The notes under the pieces: model-generated
The model's input: only the letters and a program-made list of their open reading frames with translations
The model's database searches: none
What the model was told of the DNA's origin: nothing
NCBI GenBank assembly: GCA_039815185.1
Contig: JBCBZT010000018.1
Coordinates: forward strand, 66,994 to 130,993
Source of the DNA: Cyanobacteria bacterium P01_A01_bin.123
GTDB taxonomy: Bacteria; Cyanobacteriota; Cyanobacteriia; Phormidesmidales; Phormidesmidaceae
Direction of reading: 5' to 3'
DNA length: 64,000 bases
Made by a program: the position numbers and the translations under genes
Shown here: one piece after another, positions 37,471 through 54,278 of the stretch
Numbering within the stretch: the stretch's first letter is position 1
Layout of the letters: each line of letters starts with the position of its first letter

Positions 37471-37669
37471 AAGAAAAATACAGGATTTGCAAGGTTGTTG
37501 TCCAAACCTGAATTTTTAGGGAAGATGAGGGACAAAGCCACAGAGCAACCTCAGAAAATCACGCCCCCTTCTAAATATTCTCCGGTGAGTGGCTAAATAA
37601 TTGCGACACTCACTGAATTCAACCTATTCGCCATTTTCAAGAGGTCTCTTAAGGCACGAAAACGTATCG

Positions 37670-40465
37670 ATGACTGTCTCGGCGAGACCGATTACTTCAG
37701 AACTTCCTCTCCTGGAGACCAAGCTCTACCTCCCCAAATGGTCTGCTGACCGGGTCTCGCGCTCGCGACTGATCGATCGCATCCACCCGCAGCGCAAATT
37801 AACCCTGGTCTCAGCCCCCGCCGGGTTTGGCAAAACAACGCTGCTAGCAGAATGGGTGGCCGCCGTACCCACGAGGCCCGTTGCCTGGGTGTCCTTAGAC
37901 CAGAGTGACAATGATCCAGCTTCTTTCTGGACCTACTTGATCACCGCGCTGCAAAACATTCAACCCAGCTTGGGTGAGCGATCGCTCGCGTTACTGCAAT
38001 CACCCCAACCACCCTCCATTGAGTCGGTCTTGATGACGTTGCTCAATGAACTGACTGCCATTGAAGCGGATATTGCCTTGGTTCTTGACGACTATCATGC
38101 GATCGCAACCCAGGCCATTCATGAAGGGATTGGCTTTTTGCTCAGCCATCTGCCGCCCCACATGCATTTGATTATTGCCAGCCGGGCCGACCCGCCCTTA
38201 TCGCTGGCGCGTTTAAGGTCTCATGGCGAATTGACCGAGCTTAGGGTGAGCGACCTGCGGTTCACACCGGACGAAGCGGCGGCTTTTTTGAACCAGGGGA
38301 TGGGGTTAGAGATTTCAGCTGTGGAGGTGTCCGCCTTGGAGCAGCGGACCGAAGGCTGGATCGCCGGACTGCAACTCGCGGCGCTATCCCTACAGGGGCG
38401 CAAGGACATTGCTGATTTTGTGGCGGCTTTTTCGGGAGACGATCGCTACATTGTGGATTATCTGCTGGAAGAAGTCTTACAGCGGCAACCCGATCACGTC
38501 CGTCGCTTTTTGCTGCAAACCGCCATTTTGGAACGCTTAAGCGGTTCGCTCTGTGATGCTGTTACCGATCAAAACGGTGGCCAGGGAATGCTGGAAACGC
38601 TGGAGCGGGGCAACCTGTTTATCATTCCATTGGATAACAAGCGCCAATGGTACCGTTACCATCACCTATTTGCCGATGTGCTTCAGGCCCATGCCCTGAT
38701 GGAATGGCCAGAACGCCTTCCTAGGCTACACGGGCGAGCCAGTGAATGGTATGAGCAGCATGATTTGTTCTCTGATGCGATTCGTCATGCCCTGGCTGCC
38801 CAGGATTTTGAGCGCGCCGCGGGGCTCATCGAACGGATGTGGCCCACCATGCGTCGGCGTCAGCGAGAAACCACGGTATTGGGCTGGATCACGTCATTGC
38901 CTGACTCCCTGATTCGTAACCGGCCCGTCCTCAGCGTTGCCTACGCCCTAGTGTTGTTGAATGATGGCCAGTTAGACGCGGTTGAATCCCGCCTGCAAGA
39001 CGCAGAACGATGCCTGGCCGCAGATTCACAGGAGCCGCTGACGGTAGTTACGGACGACGCACAGCTGCGGTCTTTACCCGCCTCTATCGCCAATGCCCGC
39101 GCCTATCGGGCGGTAGCGCTGAGGGATGTGTCTAGCACTGTGAACTACGCTCAGCAGGCCCTCGAACTGTTGCCAGAAGATGAGGAGTACGAGCGCGGCA
39201 CCACAGCCGCCCTGCTGGGGCTCGCCTACTGGACCAACGGCAGGCCAGAAGCCGGCTACCGTTCCTTTGCTGAGGGATTGGCAATTTTTAAGCAGATGGG
39301 TCTCACTCAGATTGCCATTGGTGGTACCTTGCTCCTAGCACAGATGAGCATAGCCCAGGGGCGGCTCCACCGAGCAACTAATATTTGTGAGCAGTCTTTA
39401 CAGCTGGCCAAAGAGCAGGGCGACCCGGTGCGGGCCGGCACGCCAGAACTGTATTTGGCCTTGAGCGAAGTGCGCTACGAACAAGGTAATCTGGCGGCGG
39501 CCAGCCAGCTGTTACTGAAGGGTGAAACGCTACGGCAGCAGGCTTCGCTATCGGGGGCTAAATTTATTTGGTGGGTAATGCAGGCCCGCTTAACAGCCGC
39601 CGAGGGCGATCTGGAAACCGCATTCGACCAGCTTCACGAGGCGGAGCGGCTCCACTCCCGGACGTCTATGCCAGTGCCAGATGTGCGCCCGATCGCAGCG
39701 TTGAGGGTGCGGTGGTGGTTGTGGCAAGGGAGGCTAGCTGAAGCGCTGGGCTGGGTGCGCGATGGCCCTTTCGGGCCGGTCTTTGACCATCGCGGTCTGT
39801 CGGTAGACGATGAGCTGAGCTATCTACATGAGTACGAACATCTCACCCTGGTGAGAGTCCTGGTTGCCCAGTACAGACGTGATTGCATAGACAACGCTCT
39901 TGATCAGGCTATCGGACTCCTTGCCCGACTTCTGGAAACCGCAGAAGCTGAGGAGAGAACCGGCAGCATCATCGAAATTCTGGTGGTTCAGGCATTGGCG
40001 TATGAGGCGAAAGGGGATTTGGCGGGTGCGATTGAATCGCTAGAACGGGCCTTAATCCTGGCCGAACCGGAGGGCTATGTTCGGATATTTGCAGAATGTG
40101 GAACCCCGATGGCGCGACTGCTGCAAGATGCCATGACTCGCGGTATCACCCCCACCTACACCCAGCAGTTATTGACCGCGTTAGAAACCTGGGGACAAAA
40201 GCCCCAAGAGCCATCTCCACTCCCCGTGTCCCTGAGCTTGTCGAAGGGCTCCCCCTCTCCCCCACCCCTAATTGAACCTCTCAGCCAACGGGAACTGGAG
40301 GTGCTCCGATTACTCAACACCGAACTCTCTGGCCCCGAAATCGCCCGTGAACTGGTGGTGGCCTTGAGTACCGTGCGTACCCATACCAAGCGGATTTACA
40401 GCAAACTCAATGTCACCAATCGTCGCGCCGCTGTAAAACGAGCCGCAGAGCTGGGGTTGATTTAA
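37670..40465 (+). CDS. MalT-type (STAND ATPase-TPR-LuxR HTH) transcriptional regulator
   Basis: LLETKLYLP, APAGFGKTTLL, LDDYH, TEGWIAGLQL, YRYHHLF, C-terminal EPLSQRELEVL LuxR HTH. Confidence 0.92.
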   Translation: MTVSARPITSELPLLETKLYLPKWSADRVSRSRLIDRIHPQRKLTLVSAPAGFGKTTLLAEWVAAVPTRPVAWVSLDQSDNDPASFWTYLITALQNIQPSLGERSLALLQSPQPPSIESVLMTLLNELTAIEADIALVLDDYHAIATQAIHEGIGFLLSHLPPHMHLIIASRADPPLSLARLRSHGELTELRVSDLRFTPDEAAAFLNQGMGLEISAVEVSALEQRTEGWIAGLQLAALSLQGRKDIADFVAAFSGDDRYIVDYLLEEVLQRQPDHVRRFLLQTAILERLSGSLCDAVTDQNGGQGMLETLERGNLFIIPLDNKRQWYRYHHLFADVLQAHALMEWPERLPRLHGRASEWYEQHDLFSDAIRHALAAQDFERAAGLIERMWPTMRRRQRETTVLGWITSLPDSLIRNRPVLSVAYALVLLNDGQLDAVESRLQDAERCLAADSQEPLTVVTDDAQLRSLPASIANARAYRAVALRDVSSTVNYAQQALELLPEDEEYERGTTAALLGLAYWTNGRPEAGYRSFAEGLAIFKQMGLTQIAIGGTLLLAQMSIAQGRLHRATNICEQSLQLAKEQGDPVRAGTPELYLALSEVRYEQGNLAAASQLLLKGETLRQQASLSGAKFIWWVMQARLTAAEGDLETAFDQLHEAERLHSRTSMPVPDVRPIAALRVRWWLWQGRLAEALGWVRDGPFGPVFDHRGLSVDDELSYLHEYEHLTLVRVLVAQYRRDCIDNALDQAIGLLARLLETAEAEERTGSIIEILVVQALAYEAKGDLAGAIESLERALILAEPEGYVRIFAECGTPMARLLQDAMTRGITPTYTQQLLTALETWGQKPQEPSPLPVSLSLSKGSPSPPPLIEPLSQRELEVLRLLNTELSGPEIARELVVALSTVRTHTKRIYSKLNVTNRRAAVKRAAELGLI
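39759..39793. repeat. 27-nt double-hairpin element inserted in a HIP1 site
   Basis: GCGAT-GGCCCTTTCGGGCC-GGTCTTTGACC-ATCGC; removing 27 nt restores GCGATCGC and the frame. Confidence 0.75.
40230..40248. repeat. Small dispersed REP-like repeat CCCTGAGCTTGTCGAAGGG inside coding sequence
   Basis: Recognisable widespread short repeat, translated here as SLSLSKG in the pre-HTH linker. Confidence 0.65.
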
Positions 40466-40572
40466 CTTAACTTCGGGATATGGAGTGATGCATGTTGCCT
40501 ATCAAATTCTTGCCATCTACATCAAGACAGGTGAGGCCATAGAGTCAGGAAACAACAACCCCTGCCAACCCC

Positions 40573-40603
40573 TTGAGTCTCACATTACGTCACCCCTTAG
40601 CAT
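40573..40603 (+). promoter_or_regulatory. MerR-type promoter/operator with 19-bp spacer
   Basis: TTGAGT-N19(ctcacattacgtcacccct)-TAGCAT upstream of the merR-family gene; spacer resembles the tipA operator. Confidence 0.6.
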
Positions 40604-40646
40604 CTAATCATCAACCGCACTCTTCTGAATAGAAGCTGAAGTGTAT

Positions 40647-41852
40647 ATGTCTAACCTGCTGCAAATTGGTGAATTGGCCAAACAGACTGGACTGTCAATC
40701 CGCACCTTACGGTACTACGACGAGATTGGTCTGTTGGTACCCTCACACCGCACCGAGGCAGAGTATCGACTCTACAGCGAAGCGGATATTGCCCGACTCC
40801 AGCGAATCCTATCGCTGCGGCAGTTGGGGTTTGCGCTTAAGGAAATCCGCGAGTGTCTGGAGAATCCCGAATTTTCCTTGCCTCAAGTGATTGACTTGCA
40901 TCTAGCGCGCCTGCAAGAGCAGATGGCGGTATCGCGATCGCTCTTTACCAAGCTCAGCAAGATGGCCCAGCAGCTACAAATCTCTCAGTCCGTTGCGGTT
41001 GAAGACCTGATTACCACAATGGAGACGATTACCATGACCCAGCAATATTTGACCCAAGAACAGCACGATTTACTAGAAGGTCGACTCAATCAAGACCAGC
41101 AGGCCGCATTGCAGCAGTTCCTGACCCAAGTGCGATCGTATCTAGCCGAGGGGCGTGACCTCAACGATCCAGAGGTACAGCAAATGGCGTGGCAGTGGCG
41201 GGAGGGGCTTCTCTCCCTCGTCGGTGGCGACCTACAGTTCTACGAAGCGCTGATGCGGCTTTACCAACAAGAAGGAGCCGAAGCGGCTAGCTGGGGCAGG
41301 CTAGATGGGCCAACGATGGAATACATTCTCAAAGCGGTGGCGATGCTGTCGGTGCGGGAAGAGTTGTCGGTGCGGGAAGAGTTGGTGGGTTTTGCGCTGG
41401 GTCGCTTAGCGCCAGAAACTTATGCGGTGCTTAGCCAAGGGCAGGCAGCCATGCGCAAGTTGCAGCTCAACTTTTTGGGGACTGAGGGATTGCTGCTAGG
41501 ACTGCTCGCAGTTGAAACGAGTGTGGCATCCCAAGCTCTGGGAGAACAAGGCGTGGACTTTGCCACAGCAGAAACCCTGCTTCGCGACTGGTTAGCCAAC
41601 CACACCGTGCCACCTACCGACATTCCCACCGAAATTCCGTTTACCCCCCGCACCTGCCGCATATTGGAACTAGCTGCTAAGCAAGTGCAACGGCAGGGAG
41701 AAGGTCAGATTACCCCGCAGCATCTGCTGCTCGGCATTTTGCAAGAAGGCGAAAAGGGGGGTGGCCTAGCGATGCACGTCTTGCAAACATGCGGTGTGGA
41801 CTGCGATCGCCTGAAGCAACAACTCAGTAATCCTTATAAACCCTATCCCTAA
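40647..41852 (+). CDS. MerR-family regulator fused to a Clp N-terminal repeat domain
   Basis: IGELAKQTGLSIRTLRYYDEIGLL HTH; FLGTEGLLLGLL, IPFTPR, ITPQHLLLGIL Clp_N repeats. Confidence 0.85.
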   Translation: MSNLLQIGELAKQTGLSIRTLRYYDEIGLLVPSHRTEAEYRLYSEADIARLQRILSLRQLGFALKEIRECLENPEFSLPQVIDLHLARLQEQMAVSRSLFTKLSKMAQQLQISQSVAVEDLITTMETITMTQQYLTQEQHDLLEGRLNQDQQAALQQFLTQVRSYLAEGRDLNDPEVQQMAWQWREGLLSLVGGDLQFYEALMRLYQQEGAEAASWGRLDGPTMEYILKAVAMLSVREELSVREELVGFALGRLAPETYAVLSQGQAAMRKLQLNFLGTEGLLLGLLAVETSVASQALGEQGVDFATAETLLRDWLANHTVPPTDIPTEIPFTPRTCRILELAAKQVQRQGEGQITPQHLLLGILQEGEKGGGLAMHVLQTCGVDCDRLKQQLSNPYKPYP

Positions 41853-41938
41853 ATCCCCACATCTGGAGATAACGGCTGCCCACATCCGTTTATATTTTTG
41901 AGTTGTTCACGCCAGTTGTGATTAGAGCAGGCGATCGC
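41851..41938 (+). repeat. Direct repeat copy A (about 88 bp; copy B at 44999-45086)
   Basis: AATCCCCACAT..GG.GA.AACGGCT...TATTTTTGAGTTGTT.ACGCCAGT.GTGATTAGAG.AGGCG shared by both copies. Confidence 0.85.
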
Positions 41939-42259
41939 CCTAACGCTATCCCGATAATTCTCAGCATTTGGGAGGGCGATTATACTGGATACGTCTACCT
42001 AATCACCCATATTGGGGTATCAGGCTGACGAATTTCCACCTAGTCAACTGTATAAGGGGATTAGACTGAAATTTTTCTACCTAAACGCACATATTAGGAG
42101 AGTTATGTGGAATGTTCCTCTCCAGTGAATTGTTAGGTATTACAGCAGTCGTCACATGGATTAGAGTGCGACTGCGAACCAAATTGCTTATGCTTTAAGG
42201 ATTGCCATTCATTTGTTTTAACGAGCAGATTGGCCAAAGCTATACATATAAGATTTCTT

Positions 42260-43054
42260 ATGAATACAATCACCAGCAAAATTCATCTTTACCATGCAAC
42301 TCAGCTAGATGACTTTGAAACTTATCTCAAATGTGGTGGTGTTTTGTGCAGGGAAGAACTTGAGGCAGCTAACCCCGAATTCACGAAATTCTTTTCGGAT
42401 GAGAAAGACAAAGCCGACAATAATTGGAATAGAACATTCGGAAACTTCGCCGATTTTGGTGCTAGATTTGCAAACTTTAAAGGTAGCGTAATTCCTAATG
42501 CTTATGGTCCCATTTGTATAGTTTTCAAGCCAGGGCTTGTGGAAAAACTTAGTGACTTTAAAGCTACTAAAATCAGTGTAGCTACTGATGGGTATAAGCC
42601 AGAGTCACACTTCATTCCATTAAGTGAACTTCCAAGCCATTTTGAAGAAACACAATCTGGCGTATTTCCCATAAAGACGAGTTCAGCTATGGAGTTTTCG
42701 TGCGCCAACCGGATAGTTGAATTTGAGCATGTCGCATACATCATTGTTGACGCGATACATTACAATGGCAGGTTTTTGCCAGACATCATTACGGAAAAAG
42801 TCAATAGCATGGGGCTGTCTATCAAGGTTCTACCTCGTAAGATGAAAAATACAGAAGAGAAACAAGCTATACTCTCCGAACTTTTATTATGGGCGGCGGC
42901 TCTGGGCGGGAAATTGCTTGATGACAATGAAGAACTTGAAAACAGCGTTCCAGATAGCCTGAAAGAATGGTTGCAGGGCTTAAAACCAAAAGGGCGTGGC
43001 ATACTTGCATCATGGCTCACATATATCTATTCAGGCACTTTGCGTTATTTATAA
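42260..43054 (+). CDS. Putative DarT/DUF4433-like ADP-ribosyltransferase-fold protein
   Basis: LYHAT.......LKCGGVL N-terminal strand, YGP, and SAMEF...VEFEHVAYIIV resembling DarT QAEFLV; AT-rich, no HIP1. Confidence 0.5.
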   Translation: MNTITSKIHLYHATQLDDFETYLKCGGVLCREELEAANPEFTKFFSDEKDKADNNWNRTFGNFADFGARFANFKGSVIPNAYGPICIVFKPGLVEKLSDFKATKISVATDGYKPESHFIPLSELPSHFEETQSGVFPIKTSSAMEFSCANRIVEFEHVAYIIVDAIHYNGRFLPDIITEKVNSMGLSIKVLPRKMKNTEEKQAILSELLLWAAALGGKLLDDNEELENSVPDSLKEWLQGLKPKGRGILASWLTYIYSGTLRYL

Positions 43055-43317
43055 GGAGATGTGTCCTAGCATCTTGCATAGAAAACACGGAATCATTTAT
43101 GGACAAAATAATTATCAAATTTTGCTATGCTTTATTCAAGAAGAATTGACAAGGAAACCCAAAAAGTTGAGGTTTGGGAATGCGAAAGGAGATGTGTCCT
43201 AGCATCTTGCATAGAAAACACGGAATCATTTATGGACAAATAATTATCAAAGTTTGCTATGTTTTATTCAAGAAGAATTAACAAGGAAACCCAAAAAGTT
43301 GAGGTTTGGGAATGCGA
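43053..43317 (+). repeat. Tandem duplication, 133 + 132 bp
   Basis: 43053-43185 and 43186-43317 differ by 3 substitutions and a 1-bp indel. Confidence 0.9.
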
Positions 43318-44389
43318 GTGGTCAAACAAGGGCACTGGCATGGCAAAGAAGGAATTTCTACGAAGAATTGGCGACGAAGAGGATATAGAGTTCTCTCATG
43401 ATTATTACAGTGCTGCTGATGCTGTCTGTTGGGCACCAGGTAGGACTATCGGCAACATCGCGGTTAGTTCTGAAGAAACATTTGGTATGTTTGAGGGAAA
43501 ATCAGGCAATGATGCTGTGCTTCCTTGTCAAATCATCCCCGCAGGCAAGTTTCGAAATGGGGCAAAGCGCTGGTATTGCAAGACCCATCAAATACACTGG
43601 GGAGTTAAGGCTGATTACGCGGCTGCATCAGAGTCAGGAGAAGTCCTTTGCAGCAATTATCTCACAAAAATGAGCTATGTCGTTAACCCTCTAGAGATTG
43701 AGTTCAAGGATTTTGAGGAAATTGGTATTTGGTGTTCACTTCCCCCAGCACTTTCCACGGAAAGTATCGAGAAAAGAGCTCCTAAAATTCATGTCCATAA
43801 GCGATTCCAACAGGAGTCAAACAAGCTTATAGACAGAGACTTTGATGCAATCGTGTGCTCCTATAACGAAGATATGGGACTCTTTTCTAATCCAGAAATC
43901 ACAAAGATACAAGTTACACCACCTGCAGCATTTGAGTTTGTCCGTTCACTGGAAGAGGAACGGGAAATGTCATGTGTTACCTGCAAGAAATGCGGTTATC
44001 CACATTTAGACTTAGGCGATTTTGCTAGAAAGCCACACAAAAAGCATTTCTGTGGAAATTGTGGTAATGACAGTATTTGGAGTCCTGGGCCGATTGTCTC
44101 TACCCCTCTAAAACCTCTTCATGATCAGTTCAGTAACAGCAATATCTACATCATTCCTGAAAGAGTTGTTAATCTTGATGAATATGCTGGTTTGAGGTTT
44201 GAATTGTGGGCATCAACGCCAGCCGTCCTGTGGACAGCGAGCCGTCCTCAAGAAAAAGGAATTCATGTCCATGTTTACGACAAAGGCCGACGCGTTGTTG
44301 ACGATACCTTTGGAACCGTAATTCTTCACGGGCAGGAGCTTCAACGAGATCAGATGTGGGAAAATATGGTTCAAAATACACTGTACTGA
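43259..44389 (+). CDS. Uncharacterised Cys/His-rich (putative Zn-binding) protein
   Basis: 376-aa ORF; CKTH, CKKC..H, HFCGNC; internal repeat W.S.P...IHVH occurs twice. Confidence 0.8.
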   Translation: MFYSRRINKETQKVEVWECEWSNKGTGMAKKEFLRRIGDEEDIEFSHDYYSAADAVCWAPGRTIGNIAVSSEETFGMFEGKSGNDAVLPCQIIPAGKFRNGAKRWYCKTHQIHWGVKADYAAASESGEVLCSNYLTKMSYVVNPLEIEFKDFEEIGIWCSLPPALSTESIEKRAPKIHVHKRFQQESNKLIDRDFDAIVCSYNEDMGLFSNPEITKIQVTPPAAFEFVRSLEEEREMSCVTCKKCGYPHLDLGDFARKPHKKHFCGNCGNDSIWSPGPIVSTPLKPLHDQFSNSNIYIIPERVVNLDEYAGLRFELWASTPAVLWTASRPQEKGIHVHVYDKGRRVVDDTFGTVILHGQELQRDQMWENMVQNTLY

Positions 44390-44393
44390 AGTC

Positions 44394-44479
44394 GCTTAAC
44401 AACCCAGGTGCAGTAGATTGCCCCACATCGCAGTAAAGTTTCAAAAGTTGTCGGCAACTGCTGACCAGAACCGTTAGAA
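44394..44479 (+). mobile_element. Integron attC-like recombination site
   Basis: R'' GCTTAAC 4 nt after the stop codon; GGT-G-CAGTAG-A-TTGCC pairs with GGCAA-CTGCTG-ACC leaving extrahelical bases; R' GTTAGAA. Confidence 0.65.
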
Positions 44480-44629
44480 AGTGGAATTTTCTACTTGACA
44501 CGATAGGCTTTCGGTTTGATGCCTGTCAGCTGCCGAAATTTTCGCCCAAAATGGCTGTGGCTGTTGAAACCGCACTCAAGGGAGATCGCGATCGTGCCCT
44601 TTGGCAAAGCTGCTGAAGGCATGAATTTG

Positions 44630-44905
44630 CTAAATCCTTATGTCTTGATGACAACGCAGTTGAGTCCAGTCCAACTCTCCGTCACAGTCTTCGATTGGGG
44701 TATCCATCCCCGCTTTAATCGACTCGCGCATACCGGGAACCGATAGTAGATAAAGCGTCTCTTGAATGCTGGACCAATCTTCTTCAGATAAAAGTACGGC
44801 GTTGCCACTAGCGCCTGTGATGATCACTGGCTGATGTGACTGACTCACAGCATCAATCAGCCGCTGCAGTTGGGTCTGCGCCTCGTCAATTGGGAGTGAA
44901 GACAT
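44630..44905 (-). CDS. Phd/YefM antitoxin, orphan, with read-through C-terminus
   Basis: HQPVIITG..GNAVLLSEEDWSSIQETLYLLSVPGMRESI; no toxin ORF follows. Confidence 0.85.
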   Translation of the reverse strand: MSSLPIDEAQTQLQRLIDAVSQSHQPVIITGASGNAVLLSEEDWSSIQETLYLLSVPGMRESIKAGMDTPIEDCDGELDWTQLRCHQDIRI

Positions 44906-44998
44906 CGCACTTTCTACCGTCTCAAGTGCTCCCATTGTAATGTTTGCTCAGAAACCACTGTCAATATCCACTAGCCTTACCCATAAATCCCCACATCG

Positions 44999-45086
44999 AA
45001 TCCCCACATTTGGGGACAACGGCTCCCCATGTCTGTTTGTATTTTTGAGTTGTTAACGCCAGTCGTGATTAGAGAAGGCGGATCGC
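44999..45086 (+). repeat. Direct repeat copy B; probable promoter/operator of the downstream operon
   Basis: Matches 41851-41938; contains palindrome TCCCCA-catt-TGGGGA and is preceded by an extra AATCCCCACAT. Confidence 0.8.
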
Positions 45087-45093
45087 AACTCCC

Positions 45094-45372
45094 ATGAGTC
45101 AACCACACCGTTCAGCCAAAGATCGCCATCCCCTTGAACAGTACGAAATTCGTATCAAGGGACATCTTGATCATCGTTGGAGCCAGTGGTTTGAAGGATT
45201 CGCGATCGCACTCAAAGATAACGGTGAAACGCTGTTGTCCGGCCCGGTAGTGGATCAGGCTGCGCTCTACGGCGTGCTGATTAAGGTGCGTGATTTAGGG
45301 TTGCCGCTGATCTCAGTCATGCCGACCCAACTCGAACAGGCAAAAAAATTGGATAAAGGAGAACAAGCATGA
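45094..45372 (+). CDS. Small conserved protein usually adjacent to MalT/LuxR regulators
   Basis: YEIRIKGHLD.RW..WFEG...DQAALYGVL.KVRDLGLPLISV. Confidence 0.75.
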   Translation: MSQPHRSAKDRHPLEQYEIRIKGHLDHRWSQWFEGFAIALKDNGETLLSGPVVDQAALYGVLIKVRDLGLPLISVMPTQLEQAKKLDKGEQA

Positions 45373-45803
45373 ACTTGCAGAAGCAGATACTGACACTAGA
45401 AATGAAAGCGAAGCTCTCGACGCTGTGGATGTTTTATCTCTTCAATACGATATTTCGGGATATCCATGAATTTATTGAGCCTGGCTTCATTGAACAGGCG
45501 ATGACCGGGACATTCAATGGCATTCAAATCACAGAACCCCTGTTGCTATTCGGTGGTTTCGTTGCCGAAGTGCCGATCGCCATGGTGCTGCTCTCGCGGC
45601 TCTTGCCCTATGGTGCTAACCGTTGGGCCAACATCATCGCCGCTGTGATTACCCTCGCGTTTGAAATCAACAACGGCACCACCGATTTAGACGATACCTT
45701 TCACATGGTCATCGAAATGGCCGCACTGTGCTTCATCATTTGGTCGGCCTGGCGGTGGCGGAACCCAGTGCCCAAGCACTACTCAACCAATCAGGAGGCA
45801 TGA
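45369..45803 (+). CDS. DUF6326-like membrane protein
   Basis: KAKLSTLW.F.LFN.IFRDIHE, ANRWANII; several TM segments. Confidence 0.7.
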   Translation: MNLQKQILTLEMKAKLSTLWMFYLFNTIFRDIHEFIEPGFIEQAMTGTFNGIQITEPLLLFGGFVAEVPIAMVLLSRLLPYGANRWANIIAAVITLAFEINNGTTDLDDTFHMVIEMAALCFIIWSAWRWRNPVPKHYSTNQEA

Positions 45804-45865
45804 TTTTTGTGAATATGCCTTAGATACGAGAAATGCAGAAACCATTTAACTAAATCAACGAGGAT

Positions 45866-46513
45866 GTGATGAACGCTTCAGCTCAATTTTGGAACAAAGT
45901 TGCCGATGGTTATGCCAAACAACCGATCGCGGATGAAGCCGCCTACCAAAAGAAACTCCAGGTCACACGGGAATATTTGCAGCCCAGTATGAACGTGCTG
46001 GAGTTTGGTTGCGGTACCGGCTCAACGGCCATTACTCATGCCCCTTACGTGCAACATATCCGAGCGATTGACTTCTCATCAAACATGATTGCGATCGCTC
46101 AAGCGAAAGCCGCCGCCCAGAACATTCCAAATGTCACCTTTGAGCAAGCCAGTATTGACGAGCTGAGCGTCCCTGACCAAACTTACGATGCTGTATTGGG
46201 ATTGAATGTTTTACACCTGCTCCAAAACAAGGAAGCGGCGATCGCCAAGGTCCATAACCTGCTCCAACCGGGCGGATGTTTCATCACCAGTACCATCTGT
46301 CTGGGGGATACGATGGCTTGGTTCAAACTGATTGCCCCCGTGGGTAAATTCTTGGGACTGTTTCCGTTAGTCAAGATCTTCACGATCCAAGACTTAGTGA
46401 AAAGTTTGACAGATGCGGGATTTTCAATTGACTACCAATGGCAAGCGGGTGATTACAAATCGCCCATCGGTAACGCGAAAATCGTGTTCATTGTGGCTAA
46501 GAAGGCTGAGTAG
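45866..46513 (+). CDS. Class I SAM-dependent methyltransferase
   Basis: VLEFGCGTG, IDFS, LQPGG. Confidence 0.9.
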   Translation: MMNASAQFWNKVADGYAKQPIADEAAYQKKLQVTREYLQPSMNVLEFGCGTGSTAITHAPYVQHIRAIDFSSNMIAIAQAKAAAQNIPNVTFEQASIDELSVPDQTYDAVLGLNVLHLLQNKEAAIAKVHNLLQPGGCFITSTICLGDTMAWFKLIAPVGKFLGLFPLVKIFTIQDLVKSLTDAGFSIDYQWQAGDYKSPIGNAKIVFIVAKKAE

Positions 46514-46532
46514 AGTTGAAGGTTGAAGACCG

Positions 46533-47081
46533 ATGAAAAAAGTTGCTGTTTTTGGCAATACGGGCGGGGGAAAGTCCACCCTCAGCCAACGCTTGGCTGA
46601 CTTAACTGGACTGCCTTGGGTACCGCTTGATTCGCTGCAGTACCAGCCCGGTGGCGGCGAAGTGCCCCACGCTGAGTTCAAGGCTGCCCACGATGCCCTA
46701 TTACAACAGGACCAGTGGATTGTGGATGGCTTTGGCTCAATGGATACCTTATGGCCGCGTTTAGCCGCAGCCGATACCCTGGTATATCTCGATATGCCTG
46801 TGCTGCGGCACTACTGGTGGGTGACGAAGCGATTCCTGCAAGGGGCTTGGGTATCGCCTGCTGGTTGGCCGGAGGGGAGCTCGTTATTGAAAGGAACGCT
46901 GAACTCGTACAGCATCGTTCGGCTGTGCCATACCAAACTGACACCCAAATATCGAGCGTATGTAGCGCAAGCTCAGGCAACAAAGCAGGTTTACCATCTG
47001 CGATCGCTCAAAGATATCGAGACGTTTTACCAGACTGTTGAAGACAAAACCGATGTCACGACACCTGAAACTGAACCATGA
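46533..47081 (+). CDS. Adenylate-kinase-like P-loop protein (FlaR/topology-modulation family)
   Basis: VFGNTGGGKSTL, WIVDG, ADTLVYLD. Confidence 0.8.
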   Translation: MKKVAVFGNTGGGKSTLSQRLADLTGLPWVPLDSLQYQPGGGEVPHAEFKAAHDALLQQDQWIVDGFGSMDTLWPRLAAADTLVYLDMPVLRHYWWVTKRFLQGAWVSPAGWPEGSSLLKGTLNSYSIVRLCHTKLTPKYRAYVAQAQATKQVYHLRSLKDIETFYQTVEDKTDVTTPETEP

Positions 47082-47701
47082 CTCAATCAACAAGGTTTTG
47101 GGACAAGATCGCAGAGAAATACGCTAAGCAGCCCATTGCCGATGAAGCCGCTTACCAGAAAAAACTGGCGGTCACCCGTGACTACTTTCGCCCCGATATG
47201 GAAGTGCTGGAAATCGGCTGCGGTACGGGGTCAACGGCAATCCTCCATGCCCCCTATGTCAAGCACATCCGCGCCATTGATTTCTCTGCCAACATGATTG
47301 CCATTGCCCAGGGCAAAGCCGAGGCTGAGCACATTGACAATGTGACCTTCGAGCAAGCCACCATTGAAGACCTCGACATTCCGGATCAGAGCCTGGATGC
47401 GGTACTGGGCCTCAGCATTTTGCATTTGCTGAAGGATAAAGAGGCGGCGATCGCTCGGGTCTACCAAATGCTCAAACCGGGTGGCCTCTTCGTCACCAGC
47501 ACCGTTTGCATAGGAGATACCATGAGCTGGTTTAAGCTCATCGTACCCATTGGGCGATTCCTCGGATTTTTCCCGCTTGTTCAGGTTTTCACCGCGCAAG
47601 CGTTGGCAGACAGCTTAACCCAAGCCGGATTTGAGCTGGATTACCAATGGCAACCGAGCAAGGGCAAGGCAGTGTTCATCGTGGCAAAAAAGCCTGCATA
47701 A
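47078..47701 (+). CDS. Class I SAM-dependent methyltransferase, paralogue of 45866-46513
   Basis: YAKQPIADEAAYQKKL shared; VLEIGCGTG. Confidence 0.9.
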   Translation: MTQSTRFWDKIAEKYAKQPIADEAAYQKKLAVTRDYFRPDMEVLEIGCGTGSTAILHAPYVKHIRAIDFSANMIAIAQGKAEAEHIDNVTFEQATIEDLDIPDQSLDAVLGLSILHLLKDKEAAIARVYQMLKPGGLFVTSTVCIGDTMSWFKLIVPIGRFLGFFPLVQVFTAQALADSLTQAGFELDYQWQPSKGKAVFIVAKKPA

Positions 47702-48352
47702 ATGACCATGAATATGACACTGGATCACGTCTTTATACTGGTTGAGCCGGAGGCTAAGGTGGCTGATCGGCTGCTTGAACACGGCTTTCGAGAAGGCCCG
47801 AGAAACACTCATCCCGGTCAGGGCACCGCCAATCGGCGGGTTTACTTTGCCAATGGCATGGTGGAATTCCTGTGGGTGCGAGATGCCAATGAGGCGAACA
47901 CTGGCCCCGGTCTAGACCTGCGCTTTCCGGAGCGATCGCAAGATCCGAAAGCCTCCCCGTTTGGGGCTATTTTTGTCCCTCGTCACAATCCAATGAGTCA
48001 AGAAATGCCGTTTCCCGGTTGGCATTATCAACCTGACTACTTTCCACCCCCGAAAGGGTTCCATGTGGGTGCTAATTCCCAGAACTTGCTGGAACCGCTC
48101 TGTTTCTATTTCCCGTTTCATGATCCGGGCGTACCCCGACCGCAACCTGAACGCAATTCCCAGATGATTACGGAGGTGGTCATTTCTACACCATCGACTG
48201 ATACTCACGGGGTGTTGGCATTGGCATCGAGATGCAATCGCCTATCCATCCAATCAGCTCGTGAACATCTGATGGAAATCACGTTAGATCATTGTGCCCT
48301 AGGGTGCACCCAAGACTTTCGACCCGCAATGCCACTCATTTTGCACTGGTAA
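47702..48352 (+). CDS. VOC/glyoxalase-like family protein
   Basis: LDHVFI, HPGQGTANRRVYF...EFLW. Confidence 0.75.
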   Translation: MTMNMTLDHVFILVEPEAKVADRLLEHGFREGPRNTHPGQGTANRRVYFANGMVEFLWVRDANEANTGPGLDLRFPERSQDPKASPFGAIFVPRHNPMSQEMPFPGWHYQPDYFPPPKGFHVGANSQNLLEPLCFYFPFHDPGVPRPQPERNSQMITEVVISTPSTDTHGVLALASRCNRLSIQSAREHLMEITLDHCALGCTQDFRPAMPLILHW

Positions 48353-48430
48353 CTGTAGTAGAGTATCTAACTCATTCACGACTTTTTCTCGAACGCCACG
48401 AGGCAGGCAAGCTCTCAATAAGGAAGCGAC

Positions 48431-48877
48431 ATGGTTGTTTTAGTTGTACTACTCAGCGTATTTACTGTGACTTGGGGACTATTAGCGATCGCCCAACGTC
48501 CCCGCCAGATTCGTACCGCTGGCTGTATTGCCTTTGCAGCTTTGTTTATCTTTACAGGAATCAGTCATTTTGCTTTGGCCGAAGGCATGGTGCAGATGCT
48601 GCCTGAATGGGTTCCGGGGCGCTATCCGATCATTTACATTACCGGAATCATGGAAATGATTCTGGGACTTGGCTTTTTATGGCCATCAGGCCGACGTATG
48701 AGTGGTCTACTGACACTTACTTTCTTGATTGCTGTACTTCCATCTAATATTTATGCGGCTTTAAATTCCGTTGACTTTGGTGGAAATATTAACGGCCCTC
48801 GCTATCTGTTCTTTCGCATACCATTACAACTTTTCTTACTATGGTGGGTCTGGTTCATGGCGGTGCGTCGCTCTTAA
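48431..48877 (+). CDS. DoxX-like membrane protein
   Basis: FTGISHF, TG..E, P.NIYA, RIPLQ. Confidence 0.7.
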   Translation: MVVLVVLLSVFTVTWGLLAIAQRPRQIRTAGCIAFAALFIFTGISHFALAEGMVQMLPEWVPGRYPIIYITGIMEMILGLGFLWPSGRRMSGLLTLTFLIAVLPSNIYAALNSVDFGGNINGPRYLFFRIPLQLFLLWWVWFMAVRRS

Positions 48878-49008
48878 CTGGTTCGATAGCTTGCAATACC
48901 CAGGAATATTGAGGTTGGCTCCGTTTGCGATCGCGCGACTCTGCATCGCTTGAGCATTCCACTCCGTGCTCTCGGCTGGCCATAGCTTTCTAACAATCAA
49001 ATCCTTGA

Positions 49009-49749
49009 AGCGTATAGCCCTCTGTAACCAGGGGGTCGATTTCACCATGCAATTAAATACAAGAATCCCCACATCAGACCGCTGGAAAACTGCTCCCAGT
49101 ATCGACACCCTGCGATCGCTCTACGATGCATCTGCCGATCAATGGCAGGACAATTTAGCCCGTCTGGGCCAACTCCACGATTATCAGCTGCTGTTCAAAA
49201 GTCAGACAGTGCGCGATCGCTTGAGTCATCTTGACCAGACGTCTCAAATTCTCGACTGTGGGGTAGGAACAGGAGCCTTCAGCCTGGCGCTTTTAGAAGG
49301 TGTCAATCAGCCAGTTCATGTCTCCGGCGTCGATATTTCCTACCCCATGTTGACCCACGCTCAACAGATTCTGGAAAATCGCTGCCCGACGCTCGATTTG
49401 AGATGGGGGGATATCAGGCGCTTGCCCTTTGCCGATGAATCCTTCGACGCGGTCATATTTGCCCATGTTTTGGAGCACATGGCCGAACCCGTAGAAACGT
49501 TGCGTGAGATGATCCGAGTTCTAAAACCGGGTGCCCCGCTGATTGGCTCAGTGACTCGCAAAGGACTGGGTCAAGTGCTCATGTCCCTGCGCTGGCAAAA
49601 TCGAGGATACGTCTCCAACCAGCTGGACGCTTTCCTACAAGCCGCAGGACTTGAGGCCGTGAGGTCGTTTGACTATGGTACTGGCTGGTCGAAATGGATC
49701 TGCATAGCCGCGATCGGGGTTAAACCAGGATAGAGATCAAAGCATAATG
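49009..49749 (+). repeat. Long direct repeat copy 1 (about 740 bp; copy 2 at 53536-54277)
   Basis: Near-identical nucleotide sequence including the upstream AGCGTATAGCCCTCTG leader. Confidence 0.9.
49047..49733 (+). CDS. UbiE-like class I SAM methyltransferase
   Basis: ILDCGVGTG, GVDIS, LPFADESFDAV, RVLKPG. Confidence 0.88.
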   Translation: MQLNTRIPTSDRWKTAPSIDTLRSLYDASADQWQDNLARLGQLHDYQLLFKSQTVRDRLSHLDQTSQILDCGVGTGAFSLALLEGVNQPVHVSGVDISYPMLTHAQQILENRCPTLDLRWGDIRRLPFADESFDAVIFAHVLEHMAEPVETLREMIRVLKPGAPLIGSVTRKGLGQVLMSLRWQNRGYVSNQLDAFLQAAGLEAVRSFDYGTGWSKWICIAAIGVKPG

Positions 49750-49769: not shown

Positions 49770-51152
49770 TTACGGGTGACCGATTGGGCGAACCTTAGGG
49801 CCTTGGGTCGTATCTTCAACCGCGTAACCCACTGCGGTAATCTGATCTCTCAACTCATCGGCTTCCTGCCAGCGCTTTTTCAAGCGAGCCTGATGCCGCT
49901 GCTCAGCTAGGGCGAGGATGTCTTCGGGAATCACCGTTGCGGGCGGTGTCCAGGCCACCAATCGTAAGCCCAAGACCTGATCAAACTTGACTAATGTCGC
50001 CTTCTTGACGGCATCCGGCAAATCGCTTTTCGTCAGTTCCCAGGTCAGCGCCAGGGCCTGGGGCAGGTTCAAATCATTATTGATGAAAGCGGTAAATCGC
50101 TCGATGTACGACTCATCCGGCGTGCCGGCTTCGCCCCAACCATAGCTCAGGTTTCGGAGACGATTTAGCGCTGTGACGGCACCATCCAGACTCTCCCAAG
50201 TAAAGTTGAGGTTGGCTCGATAGCTGGCATTCAGGCAAAAATAGCGGTAGGCGAGGGGATCATATCCCCGGTCAATCAAGCTTTGCAGCTGCAAAAACTC
50301 GCCGCTGGATTTCGCCATCTTGGCATCGTTTAATTGCAGAAAATGCCCATGCAGCCAGAAATTAGCCAGGTGAGTGCCATGGCAGGCTTGGGTTTGAGCA
50401 ATTTCGTTGGTGTGATGCACCGGGATGTGATCTTCGCCGCCACAGTGGATGTCAAAGAACGTTCCTAAGTATTTGGCCGACATGGCAGAACACTCAATAT
50501 GCCAACCAGGAAAGCCCCGTCCCCAAGGACTCTCCCATTCCATCTGTCGGGTTTGATGCGAAGGGCTAAACTTCCAGAGGGCAAAGTCGGTGGGATTACG
50601 TTTTTCGGCCATCTCAACCCGGTTCCCCGCCTGCAAACCCTCAACATCCAGCCGAGCCAGATAGCCGTAATCTGACAACCGAGACGTATCAAAATAAATT
50701 CCGTCGGCAGTGCGATAGGTAAACTCTCTGGCTTCAATGCCCTGAATGAACTCGATCTGTTCCTGAATATGGTCAGTAGCTCGACACCAGACACTGGGTT
50801 CTTTGATGTTGAGGCGATCCATATCTTCCTTAAAGGACTGGGTGTAGAGTTCGGCAATTTCCCAGGCGGTTTTACCCGTCCGTTTGGAGCCTTTCTCCAT
50901 TTTGTCTTCGCCCTCATCGGCGTCGGAGGTGAGGTGGCCGACGTCGGTAATGTTCATCACATGGCGGACTTTGTAGCCGTTGAACTCTAGTACCCGGCGC
51001 AGTAGATCCTCAAAAATGTAGGTGCGCAGGTTGCCGATGTGGGCATAGTCATAGACTGTGGGACCGCAGGTATAGAGGTCCACATTGGGGGGATGGAGGG
51101 GCTCAAAATCCCGCAGTTGACGGGCATAGGTGTCGTAAAGTTGGAGGCTCAT
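49770..51152 (-). CDS. cysS: Cysteine-tRNA ligase (foreign-type, probably a second copy)
   Basis: [33 protein letters not shown]; carries a [16 protein letters not shown] insertion. Confidence 0.93.
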
Positions 51153-52484: not shown

Positions 52485-52734
52485 AACAGCAGCACCCCTT
52501 CAAATACAGGGGTTTACACACTGCCGGAACCCAACAAAGGGCGGTGCCATCCAGCTTCTACACTCCGAAGTTACGCATTCAACTCATCCGCTTCAGGAGC
52601 GTAGCACTCATTTACTGCCTGTCGTGGCAGAACCGTTTTGCCCTACTAATGCCCATCTCCAATGGAAAACGTTCCAATGGGTGATCTCAGGTTCAGGCAA
52701 ACCTCTCCGAGGGGTCTATCCTCTTCAATGAGTT
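52485..52734 (-). ncRNA. T-box riboswitch, Asp specifier, ultra-short Stem I
   Basis: K-turn plus GAGG/CCTC stem with GAC in the loop; Stem II GAA/AGTA; Stem III; antiterminator GCTGGA-TGGCACC-GCCC...GGGT-TCCGGC; competing 3' hairpin. Confidence 0.82.
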
Positions 52735-52740
52735 GGGCCA

Positions 52741-52749
52741 ATTCTAGCA
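52741..52749 (-). promoter_or_regulatory. Extended -10 promoter for the T-box leader
   Basis: TGcTAGAAT ending about 7 nt upstream of the Stem I base. Confidence 0.55.
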
Positions 52750-52901
52750 AAACCGCTTTCAGAAAAAAGTACCCGCTTGGGTCACATGATTGACCCAACT
52801 TTTTGTCGCATCTCGATCTCAAAAATTTCGGACCTAAACCTTGTCTTCTCAGCGGGCTTTAAACGCTGGGTAATCGGCTGGTTTTTTCTGGATGATGTTG
52901 C

Positions 52902-53437: not shown

Positions 53438-53573
53438 AGCCTTAATTCAGCGCCATTCGCCCCGATATAGCGCGATCGTTCAAATCCGTAATCCTAGCTC
53501 GCCACTACTTTCCATCAATTGAATTGAATCCACGCAGCGTATAGCCCTCTGCAACAAGAGGGTCGATTTAGCC

Positions 53574-54278
53574 ATGCCATTAAACACAACAATTCCCACA
53601 TTAGACCGCTGGAGAACCGCTCCCAGTATCGATACACTTCGCTTGATCTAAGATGCATCTGCCTATCAATGGCAGGGCAATTTGGCCCGTCTGGGTCAGC
53701 TCCACGATTATCAGCTGCTGTTTGCCAGTCAGGCCGTGCGCGATCGCTTGAGTCATCTTGACCAGACGTCTCACATTCTCGATTGCGGGGTAGGAACAGG
53801 AGCCTTCAGTCTTGTGCTTTTAGAAAGTGTCAATCAGCCAACTCATGTCGCCGGCGTCGATATTTCCTACCCCATGTTGACCTACGCCCAACAGATTCTA
53901 GAAAATCGCTGCCCGACTCTCGATCTGAGATGGGGGGATATCAGGCGCTTGCCCTTTGCCGATGAATCCTTCGACGCGGTCATATTCGCCCATGTTTTGG
54001 AGCACATGGCCGAACCCGTAGAAACTTTGCGTGAGATGGTTCGAGTCCTGAAACCGGGTGCCCCTTTAATTGGCTCAGTGACTCGCAAAGGGCTGGGTCA
54101 AGTCCTCATGTCCCTGCGCTGGCACAATCGCGGATACGCCTCCAACCAGTTGAACGCTTTTCTGCAAGCAGCAGAACTTGAGGCAGTGAGGTCGTTTGAC
54201 TATGGTACTGGCTGGTCGAAATGGATGTGCATAGCCACGATCGGTGTTAAGCCAAGGATAGAGATCAAAGCATTATGA
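53574..54278 (+). pseudogene. Pseudogenised duplicate of the 49047 methyltransferase
   Basis: TAC to TAA at codon 26 (53649-53651); 1-bp insertion near the 3' end. Confidence 0.8.

Follow-up and report, generated by a model that had tools for sequence, protein, structure and literature searches.

A T-box leader with an ultra-short Stem I and a putative aspartate specifier upstream of a second aspartyl-tRNA synthetase gene in a cyanobacterium

Introduction

The locus described here raises the question of whether a leader that precedes a gene for aspartyl-tRNA synthetase (AspRS) in a cyanobacterium is a T-box, and, if so, which tRNA it would sense and by what mode of output it would act. It lies in a window of 64,000 nucleotides (the whole stretch of DNA that was analysed; contig JBCBZT010000018.1, positions 66,994 to 130,993) from Cyanobacteria bacterium P01_A01_bin.123, and coordinates are given as positions in that window unless a locus or contig is named. 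The original prediction, made from the letters alone, proposed a T-box with an ultra-short Stem I, an Asp specifier and a matching aspS gene. That the host is a cyanobacterium, as was also claimed, is borne out by psbC and hetR in the window, both above curated cut-offs.

According to the available text of a 2023 preprint (10.1101/2023.02.28.530422), every ultrashort T-box controls ileS and is responsive to tRNA-Ile, and a short Stem I has been tied, in the available part of another study, to translational T-boxes found mostly in Actinobacteria (Zhang 2020, PMC7583486). The class II model of TBDB was, in the available description, run on Actinobacteria and on class I hits with a truncated Stem I; the preprint and journal text of TBDB, in the form accessible to us, contains neither 'cyanobacteria' nor 'proteobacteria', and its phylum figure or supplement may list stray entries. 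Isolated T-box-like leaders are described in Gammaproteobacteria and Chlorobia in the accessible part of Naville and Gautheret (PMC2965389), and T-boxes in Gram-negative bacteria are therefore not new in themselves. Among titles and the first parts of abstracts, no paper was found on an Asp ultrashort or a cyanobacterial T-box, so that novelty is provisional, and none was found in the literature on an 'aspS RNA' motif.

Results

The elements named in the original prediction were recovered where it had placed them (Table 1), namely the extended -10 element, a K-turn capped by a 4-bp helix with GAC in its loop, the two strands of the Stem II S-turn, Stem III, the antiterminator with its bulge, and the hairpin that excludes it. 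The helix CTGCC/GGCAG, which had been called a IIA-like hairpin, is also present and is 88% paired across the family, where 3 of its 4 pairs show double-sided changes, but the IIA label does not hold, as this is stem IIB of a IIA/B pseudoknot. Stem IIA proper, 93% paired in the family, consists in this copy of 2 bp and a G.A mismatch. With a Stem I of only 30 nt, the leader possesses the T-box modules K-turn, Stem II S-turn, IIA/B pseudoknot (IIA being weak here) and Stem III, and every tRNA-contacting position is intact in this copy. The minimum-energy fold of the whole leader lacks Stem I and helix A1 as drawn, and this single sequence outdoes its shuffles in fold energy by a modest margin (z = -2.5), 4 of 200 of them folding as well.

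Table 1. Features of the leader and of its downstream genes, with window coordinates, and short-stem Ile leaders at other loci.
Feature	Position	Strand	Remarks
T-box leader	52734-52484	minus	Upstream of second AspRS gene
Extended -10 promoter element	52741..52749	minus	TG 52749-52748, hexamer 52746-52741
Ultra-short Stem I: K-turn, 4-bp helix, 7-nt terminal loop	52703..52732	minus	Conservation, helix pairing
Specifier GAC (Asp), supported	52714..52716	minus	6 nt before 3' GA of K-turn
Stem II	52637..52701	minus	S-turn strands GAA 52694-52692, AGUA 52647-52644
Purines at five-purine-string positions	within Stem II, 52637..52701	minus	Family conservation; role from ileS T-box literature
Stem IIA/B pseudoknot	52615..52635	minus	Pairing across family alignment
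Stem IIA	52635-52633 with 52625-52623	minus	Third pair mismatched in this copy
Stem IIB	52630-52626 with 52619-52615	minus	CTGCC/GGCAG
RAG linker motif	52609-52607	minus	Invariant G's
Stem III	52604-52558	minus	97.6% paired, 4/5 pairs compensatory
Antiterminator/antisequestrator: helix A1, 7-nt T-box bulge, helix A2	52523..52555	minus	A1 100%, A2 97.7% paired
T-box bulge UGGCACC	52549-52543	minus	Starts UGGN directly after A1; fourth base C
OFF hairpin, mutually exclusive with antiterminator	52526-52487	minus	Then three U's, to 52484
Second, archaeal-type AspRS, 432 aa	51171..52469	minus	PRK05159, 467 bits (cut-off 353)
Second cysteinyl-tRNA synthetase	49770..51152	minus	TIGR00435, 410 bits; 18 nt downstream of aspS
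Short-stem Ile leaders	L029, L041, L046, L070, L075, L081, L094, L098, L127		Among matches listed

Of 74 leaders, 29 have a TANNNT hexamer at a distance of 5-11 nt ahead of the K-turn, as against 30 of 431 background windows, and the spacing is 7-8 nt in 27 of those 29. With this conserved -10 hexamer in front of it, transcription probably starts near 52734-52733, directly at the K-turn. The promoter was missed by a sigma-70 scan, which demands a -35 match. Just upstream of it, the plus strand carries an inverted repeat of 8 bp, perfectly matched and followed by a U tail (52777-52798), which may insulate the leader promoter.

A search with the Rfam T-box model (RF00230), which had been suggested as a check, was run with release 15 and left the leader undetected even at E<=10; standard annotation therefore misses it. 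No RF00230 match in the whole genome exceeds the cut-off, the one weak match (13.8 bits) being on another contig, and in the 18 related loci scanned no Rfam family reaches its gathering score at the leader. A family-specific pattern occurs a single time in the genome. Upstream of AspRS homologues, the leader is present in all 14 named-genome loci, one of them with a shortened bulge. A metagenome scan with a 19-base antiterminator pattern returned at least 119 loci, in which conservation of the antiterminator is by construction. Among the matches listed, at least 63 lie before AspRS genes, at least one is a leader with no gene in view and at least nine precede ileS operons; at least 34 ftsY-type coding matches and at least 12 other chance matches were dropped.

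The 74 complete leaders reduced to 55 at <90% identity, and the alignment holds 42 of these together with the present leader, 13 having been left out for large insertions or for want of a IIA/B region (the latter is absent altogether from family members L035, L051, L087, L116 and L129). Across 43 named pairs in 43 leaders, 95.7% of cells are paired and 24 pairs change on both sides, counts of covariation that are inflated by kinship, many loci being close kin. Of 500 shuffles, none reached the observed pairing and covariation, and slid partners were 38-47% paired, whilst RNAalifold, run independently, gave the same 39 nested pairs. Double-sided changes are seen in 12 of 13 pairs of Stem II (helices 3-5) and in a single pair of helix A1, and the Stem I helix variants GACG/CGTC, AAGG/CCTT and GGAG/CTCC retain pairing. 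A model built from the Asp-leader alignment also detects canonical T-boxes and ileS leaders. The absence of conservation in homologous leaders, which the original prediction had named as evidence against a T-box, was not seen. Because the leader is conserved before every close AspRS homologue examined and its covariation exceeds the controls, it is confirmed, at the level of comparative sequence analysis, as a real T-box RNA and not a chance resemblance, and its ultra-short Stem I is supported by conservation, covariation and register.

Weak matches in the class holding locus L008 comprise two Asp leaders with longer base helices (L170 and L172), a relic (L171) and a false match (L173). In L170 (1501-1712) and L172 (1501-1762) the K-turn is replaced by the longer base helix and a side hairpin, and the 7-nt specifier loop is kept. 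Locus L107 has a duplicated, partly mutated discriminator domain.

The gene downstream does encode an AspRS, as proposed, but a rare second one and not the housekeeping enzyme. Other class IIb synthetase genes lie elsewhere in the genome, including a 623-residue frame and an AsnRS-like gene, and a canonical bacterial aspS is found over the cut-off in all 10 other carrier genomes tested; the archaeal-type AspRS is therefore a second copy. Its best solved relative is the non-discriminating Thermus AspRS2, and both NCBIfam and JGI label it aspartate--tRNA(Asn) ligase. The anticodon domain has Tyr27 and Arg80, at two positions that we take to be determinants of AspRS discrimination; a search of the literature on AspRS discrimination residues found no matching paper. 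Two solved non-discriminating relatives have His and Pro there, and the Thermococcus/Pyrococcus enzyme Trp and Lys. Within the family, 63 of 71 proteins carry Lys or Arg at position 80 and a single one carries Pro, while His occupies position 27 in 5 of 71. From these residues the second AspRS is read as probably discriminating, which fits an Asp sensor. No gatCAB was found beside aspS in the loci read.

The second cysS is 36% identical to the other cysS, on contig C5, and is probably co-transcribed with aspS in this genome only; in all other loci read, no cysS follows aspS. The Asp sensor may therefore gate the spare CysRS here as well. Cys was considered as a second specifier for the downstream cysS and rejected, the loop having no Cys codon and cysS not being linked elsewhere. 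The unit made up of cysS, aspS, the T-box and a DUF4359 gene is flanked by a direct repeat of 751 bp (90% identical; SAM methyltransferase gene) at 49000-49749 and 53527-54277, and this cassette may be the product of insertion or duplication through recombination. An island-like run precedes it (37601-49733), with a MalT-like LuxR regulator, a MerR-Clp_N protein, a Phd/YefM antitoxin, DUF6326 and three methyltransferases; a MalT-like gene also adjoins aspS in locus L002.

The Stem I loop reads A-N-A-G-A-C-C in all 92 short Asp loci examined (related and duplicate records included), so that AGA, GAC and ACC are all invariant and the register must decide which is the specifier. GAC precedes the 3' GA of the K-turn by 6 nt in 6 of 6 long Asp T-boxes, as does AUC in the 8 of 8 readable short ileS leaders among the matches listed, and of the three triplets in the short Asp leaders none but GAC is so placed. 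The specifier also matches the gene throughout, with GAC before aspS in 92 of 92 and AUC before ileS in 8 of 8 readable cases, and GAC obeys the C rule. The Asp specifier that had been predicted is thus supported by a register shared with long Asp T-boxes and with the AUC of ileS leaders, by the C rule and by the identity of the gene. No specifier other than Asp or Ile was found among the short-stem leaders examined.

The fourth bulge base is C in 64 and U in 28 Asp leaders, both of which pair with G73, and U in 9 of 9 Ile leaders among the matches listed. In this genome tRNA-Asp(GUC) does have the G73 that the bulge C was proposed to read, but so do tRNA-Asn and tRNA-Arg(UCU), tRNA-Thr(GGU) having U73; the bulge therefore supports Asp and does not prove it. 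It had further been cautioned that no purine follows GAC. The base there is indeed C, but the objection is weak: the equivalent A19U change in the Nocardia ileS T-box cost 2.4-fold in the available part of Zhang 2020 (PMC7583486), and in a long Streptomyces Asp T-box GAC is likewise followed directly by C.

An array of tRNA genes for Asp, Glu, Arg, Asn, Gln and others, with CCA encoded in several of them, lies at G000:C96:89969-91550 in this genome, separate from the housekeeping tRNAs, and a second Asp tRNA of the same type is on contig C121. These extra tRNA-Asp species could be additional ligands. In locus L088 (333-1438), a T-box-controlled aspS is followed immediately, on the same strand, by at least 11 tRNA genes.

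With regard to output, 67 leaders were folded and one was skipped. The OFF helix covers the AUG or ends no more than 10 nt from it in 55 of the 67, and in 52 the ON fold leaves the start region more accessible; five U's within 8 nt after the OFF helix occur in one leader. In Nostocales-type leaders a GGA some 10 nt ahead of the AUG is the pairing partner of the A1 3' strand. Because the OFF helix reaches the AUG and the start is more open in the ON fold in so many leaders, the computed folds indicate that the output of the family is mostly translational, with the OFF hairpin predicted to bury the ribosome site and the AUG; this is what a short Stem I would lead one to expect.

In the present leader the OFF hairpin ends 18 nt before the AUG (16-18 nt when the close relatives L002 and L003 are included), and A1 is 56-57 nt from the AUG in all three. 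The U run after the hairpin is 3 here, 4 in L002 and 5 in L003; with 4 U's in the 8 nt after the hairpin, the U-tract is as weak as had been cautioned. A terminator scan gave 5 sites against 3.7 expected and lists only the upper part of the OFF hairpin. The ON fold (-32.4 kcal/mol) and the OFF fold (-31.9 to -32.8 kcal/mol) are within 1 kcal/mol of each other, the probability of A1 formation in the free RNA is 0.21, accessibility of the start region is 0.53 versus 0.51 between the folds, and the purine-rich SD-like stretch is paired in both. The genome, which is 99.99% complete, has no Rho, so that any termination must be intrinsic, and no K-turn binder of the L7Ae family. On these models, weak intrinsic termination may well be how this copy works, falling a little short of an even chance; translational control is a possibility of somewhat lower standing, and a leaky switch is rather unlikely.

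The archaeal-type AspRS gene is rare: across the order it is present in 2 of 173 genomes, one of them the present genome, and a model search found the leader RNA in the same 2 gene-bearing genomes among 151. In the family of Calothrix sp. NIES-4105 (L004) the gene is present in 17 of 389 genomes and the RNA in 17 of 17 gene loci; leader and gene are thus always together. Among the carriers with a name are Oscillatoria, Pleurocapsales, Calothrix, Dulcicalothrix and Fischerella, as well as MAGs of Melainabacteria (one), Bdellovibrionota (two), an alphaproteobacterium (one) and Chlorobiota (one); cultured carriers include Calothrix PCC 7103, PCC 7716 and Dulcicalothrix PCC 7102, and close protein relatives are named from other Nostocales and Acidobacteriota. 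The claim of an unusual T-box subclass in a cyanobacterium stands, but the subclass is not specific to cyanobacteria. In model searches with stricter filters or limited candidates, a T-box of the same kind was absent from 150 other cyanobacterial genomes and from 150 other genomes of the class holding locus L015, and no second leader copy was found in five carrier genomes. Viral contigs gave 3 pattern matches, none with a leader, and a search of plasmid DNA with the leader gave no match.

In a quick AspRS tree of 77 rows with long outgroup branches, the 71 family proteins group together (SH-aLRT 100), as do 28 rows that take in every named cyanobacterium and the Melainabacteria MAG (100). This pattern would fit a single entry into the line of the cyanobacteria, followed by patchy spread or by loss. 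The cyanobacterial T-box is in any case of small, patchy and gene-linked distribution and not a phylum-wide system.

As for the origin of the short stem, the base of Stem I in long Asp T-boxes consists of GA-N, a 4-bp helix, 2-3 A-rich bases and the Stem I S-turn, with GAC-N, the helix and N-GA on the other strand. Deletion from the S-turn to just before GAC would yield the 7-nt loop of the short leaders, and a Streptomyces long sequence with such a deletion would become the exact Stem I of L170. In short ileS leaders the codon is preceded by pyrimidines, and the extra pair beside the K-turn is missing. Because the truncated long Asp Stem I gives this loop and the ileS leaders differ beside the codon, it seems rather probable that the short stem arose by deletion from a long Asp T-box, and not by a codon switch in an Ile leader. 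Against this, the Asp-built model scores short Ile leaders at 16-57 bits and long Asp leaders at 23-37 bits (four) or not at all (two), so that the Ile leaders do at least as well, though they were picked by a pattern that is inside the model.

Discussion

The leader belongs to the T-box family, yet to neither Rfam class I nor the published, Ile-only ultrashort class. It resembles the ultrashort (US; TBDB class II) ileS T-boxes, for which reference structures are those of Nocardia farcinica (6UFM) and Mycobacterium tuberculosis (6UFG) and which are also known from M. smegmatis, in its K-turn topped by a short helix, the terminal-loop position of the specifier, the lack of an elbow-binding double T-loop, the S-turn in Stem II, the IIA/B pseudoknot, the RAG linker (its role is treated in the available part of PMC11297988), and Stem III; most of the family, though not this copy, also shares with them, by computed folds, sequestration of the ribosome site. 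It differs in that the specifier is Asp (GAC) and not Ile, in the C that follows it, and in that the sub-clade of this leader may end in a terminator. Unlike the actinobacterial hosts of the US ileS T-boxes, the carriers belong to Cyanobacteriota, Melainabacteria and Bdellovibrionota and include one MAG each from the alphaproteobacteria and Chlorobiota, and related proteins are named from Acidobacteriota.

Canonical T-boxes with a long Stem I (RF00230) also precede archaeal-type aspS, in Bacillus, Clostridia, Streptomyces and Nonomuraea, and distant AspRS genes (33-44% identity) carry them in 6 of 8 cases, four over the Rfam cut-off. With these long Asp T-boxes the leader shares the gene family, GAC in the same register, the GA-N-4 bp base of Stem I, 2-3 A-rich nt after the base helix and a C or U anti-discriminator, whereas the parts above the specifier (Stem I S-turn, AG bulge, distal loop) are missing here; RF00230 gives the long Asp T-boxes 63-141 bits and this leader nothing. 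Two long-Stem I Asp T-boxes before archaeal-type aspS, in Streptomyces (L178, 1220-1455) and Nonomuraea (L176, 1191-1411), score 81 and 64 bits, below the Rfam gathering score, and the bulge of the Streptomyces one has G at position 6, where C is usual.

A T-box controlling an AspRS gene of Clostridium acetobutylicum is said to have an Asn specifier. In that species a second, archaeal-type AspRS is under T-box control (Saad et al. 2012, as relayed in the available part of PMC4206432). As here, a duplicate AspRS under a T-box coexists with a housekeeping enzyme, but in the account available that system serves tRNA-dependent Asn synthesis with GatCAB, whereas the present leader displays GAC, no gatCAB adjoins it and its enzyme looks discriminating.

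Short-stem ileS leaders from metagenomes (nearest named proteins from Candidatus Saccharimonadales) have the same build, with the specifier 6 nt from the K-turn, but differ from the Asp leaders in their AUC specifier, U as the only anti-discriminator and pyrimidines before the specifier. The genes behind them encode IleRS by TIGR00392, of a type-2-like kind, and Rfam at gathering score misses the leader in all 8 scanned. As far as searches of the literature show, these Saccharimonadales-type leaders are not a published family. An insertion of about 95 nt sits on helix A2 in L075 and L094, and a 179-aa gene lies between leader and ileS in L070.

Overall, it is likely that a tRNA-Asp-sensing T-box controls the back-up AspRS. 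In the mechanism proposed, of which we infer the binding, the switching and the output mode, transcription would start at the K-turn, as the conserved promoter suggests, and GAC in the short Stem I loop would pair with the GUC anticodon. By analogy with solved ileS T-boxes, the Stem II S-turn, placed by the K-turn and the IIA/B pseudoknot, would brace the codon-anticodon duplex and so substitute for the missing elbow platform. The 3' G73-CCA of an uncharged tRNA would pair with the bulge and stabilise helix A1, the rival hairpin would be blocked, and the spare AspRS (here also the spare CysRS) would be made; a charged tRNA could not pair, and the OFF hairpin would win.

The identity of the tRNA is where other readings might enter. 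AGA (Arg) and ACC (Thr) are as invariant as GAC, tRNA-Arg(UCU) has G73, and a plain loop-to-loop alignment even sets the ileS AUC over AGA. Counted from the K-turn, however, GAC alone is in register, the gene is that of an AspRS, AGA would break the C rule and the U73 of tRNA-Thr(GGU) cannot pair with a bulge C or U, and we regard either triplet as a highly implausible specifier. A sensor of tRNA-Asn serving a non-discriminating AspRS is also very improbable, AAC being seen in none of 92 loops; this would agree with the database names of the protein, with Thermus AspRS2 as its nearest solved relative and with the G73 of tRNA-Asn, but the family residues at positions 27 and 80, if they play the role that we presume, point to discrimination, the genome has its own AsnRS-like gene, and no gatCAB was seen beside aspS in the loci read.

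That the tRNA-like structure is an operator bound by the synthetase itself, in autogenous repression, with the likeness to a T-box incidental, might be thought from its strict linkage to one synthetase gene and from the failure of Rfam to recognise it. It is scarcely credible given that every T-box module is present in order, that a codon and not an anticodon is displayed, and that the model built from the leader also finds canonical T-boxes and ileS leaders. More serious, if still improbable, is that the family is a functional T-box of which this copy has decayed to a leaky or constitutive leader after transfer into the cyanobacterium. The near-equal ON and OFF energies, unchanged access to the start site, weak U run and IIA mismatch would all suit decay, as would relatives in which it is visible: the close relative L003 has a bulge shorter by 2 bases and a split reading frame, L011 is frameshifted, and L171 (995-1128) has lost Stem I and the bulge and kept Stem II and the pseudoknot. 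Yet in the present copy the tRNA-contacting positions and the gene are intact, A1 is mostly absent from the free RNA, as a switch needs, and hairpin and U run are retained in L002 and L003 with different sequence. A working tRNA-Asp switch remains the preferred reading.

A further, more doubtful proposal is that an ultra-short Stem I originated a second time, separately from the actinobacterial ileS class, by a clean deletion in a long Asp T-box, spread with the spare AspRS to several Gram-negative phyla and in this cyanobacterial sub-clade was rewired from ribosome-site sequestration to intrinsic termination. If true, this sub-clade would offer a working transcriptional T-box without an elbow platform, in a phylum without Rho.

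An aspartate ultra-short T-box would mean that so minimal a reader of anticodons is not bound to a single codon. The long and short Asp leaders, having the same codon and gene family, form a matched natural pair for probing the role of the elbow platform, and may also be used to ask whether the length of Stem I dictates translational versus transcriptional output. With this finding T-boxes extend to cultured cyanobacteria, for which the texts searched mention none, and surveys based on Rfam miss them. For these organisms it raises a physiological question, namely what depletes charged tRNA-Asp and so makes a spare synthetase worth keeping.
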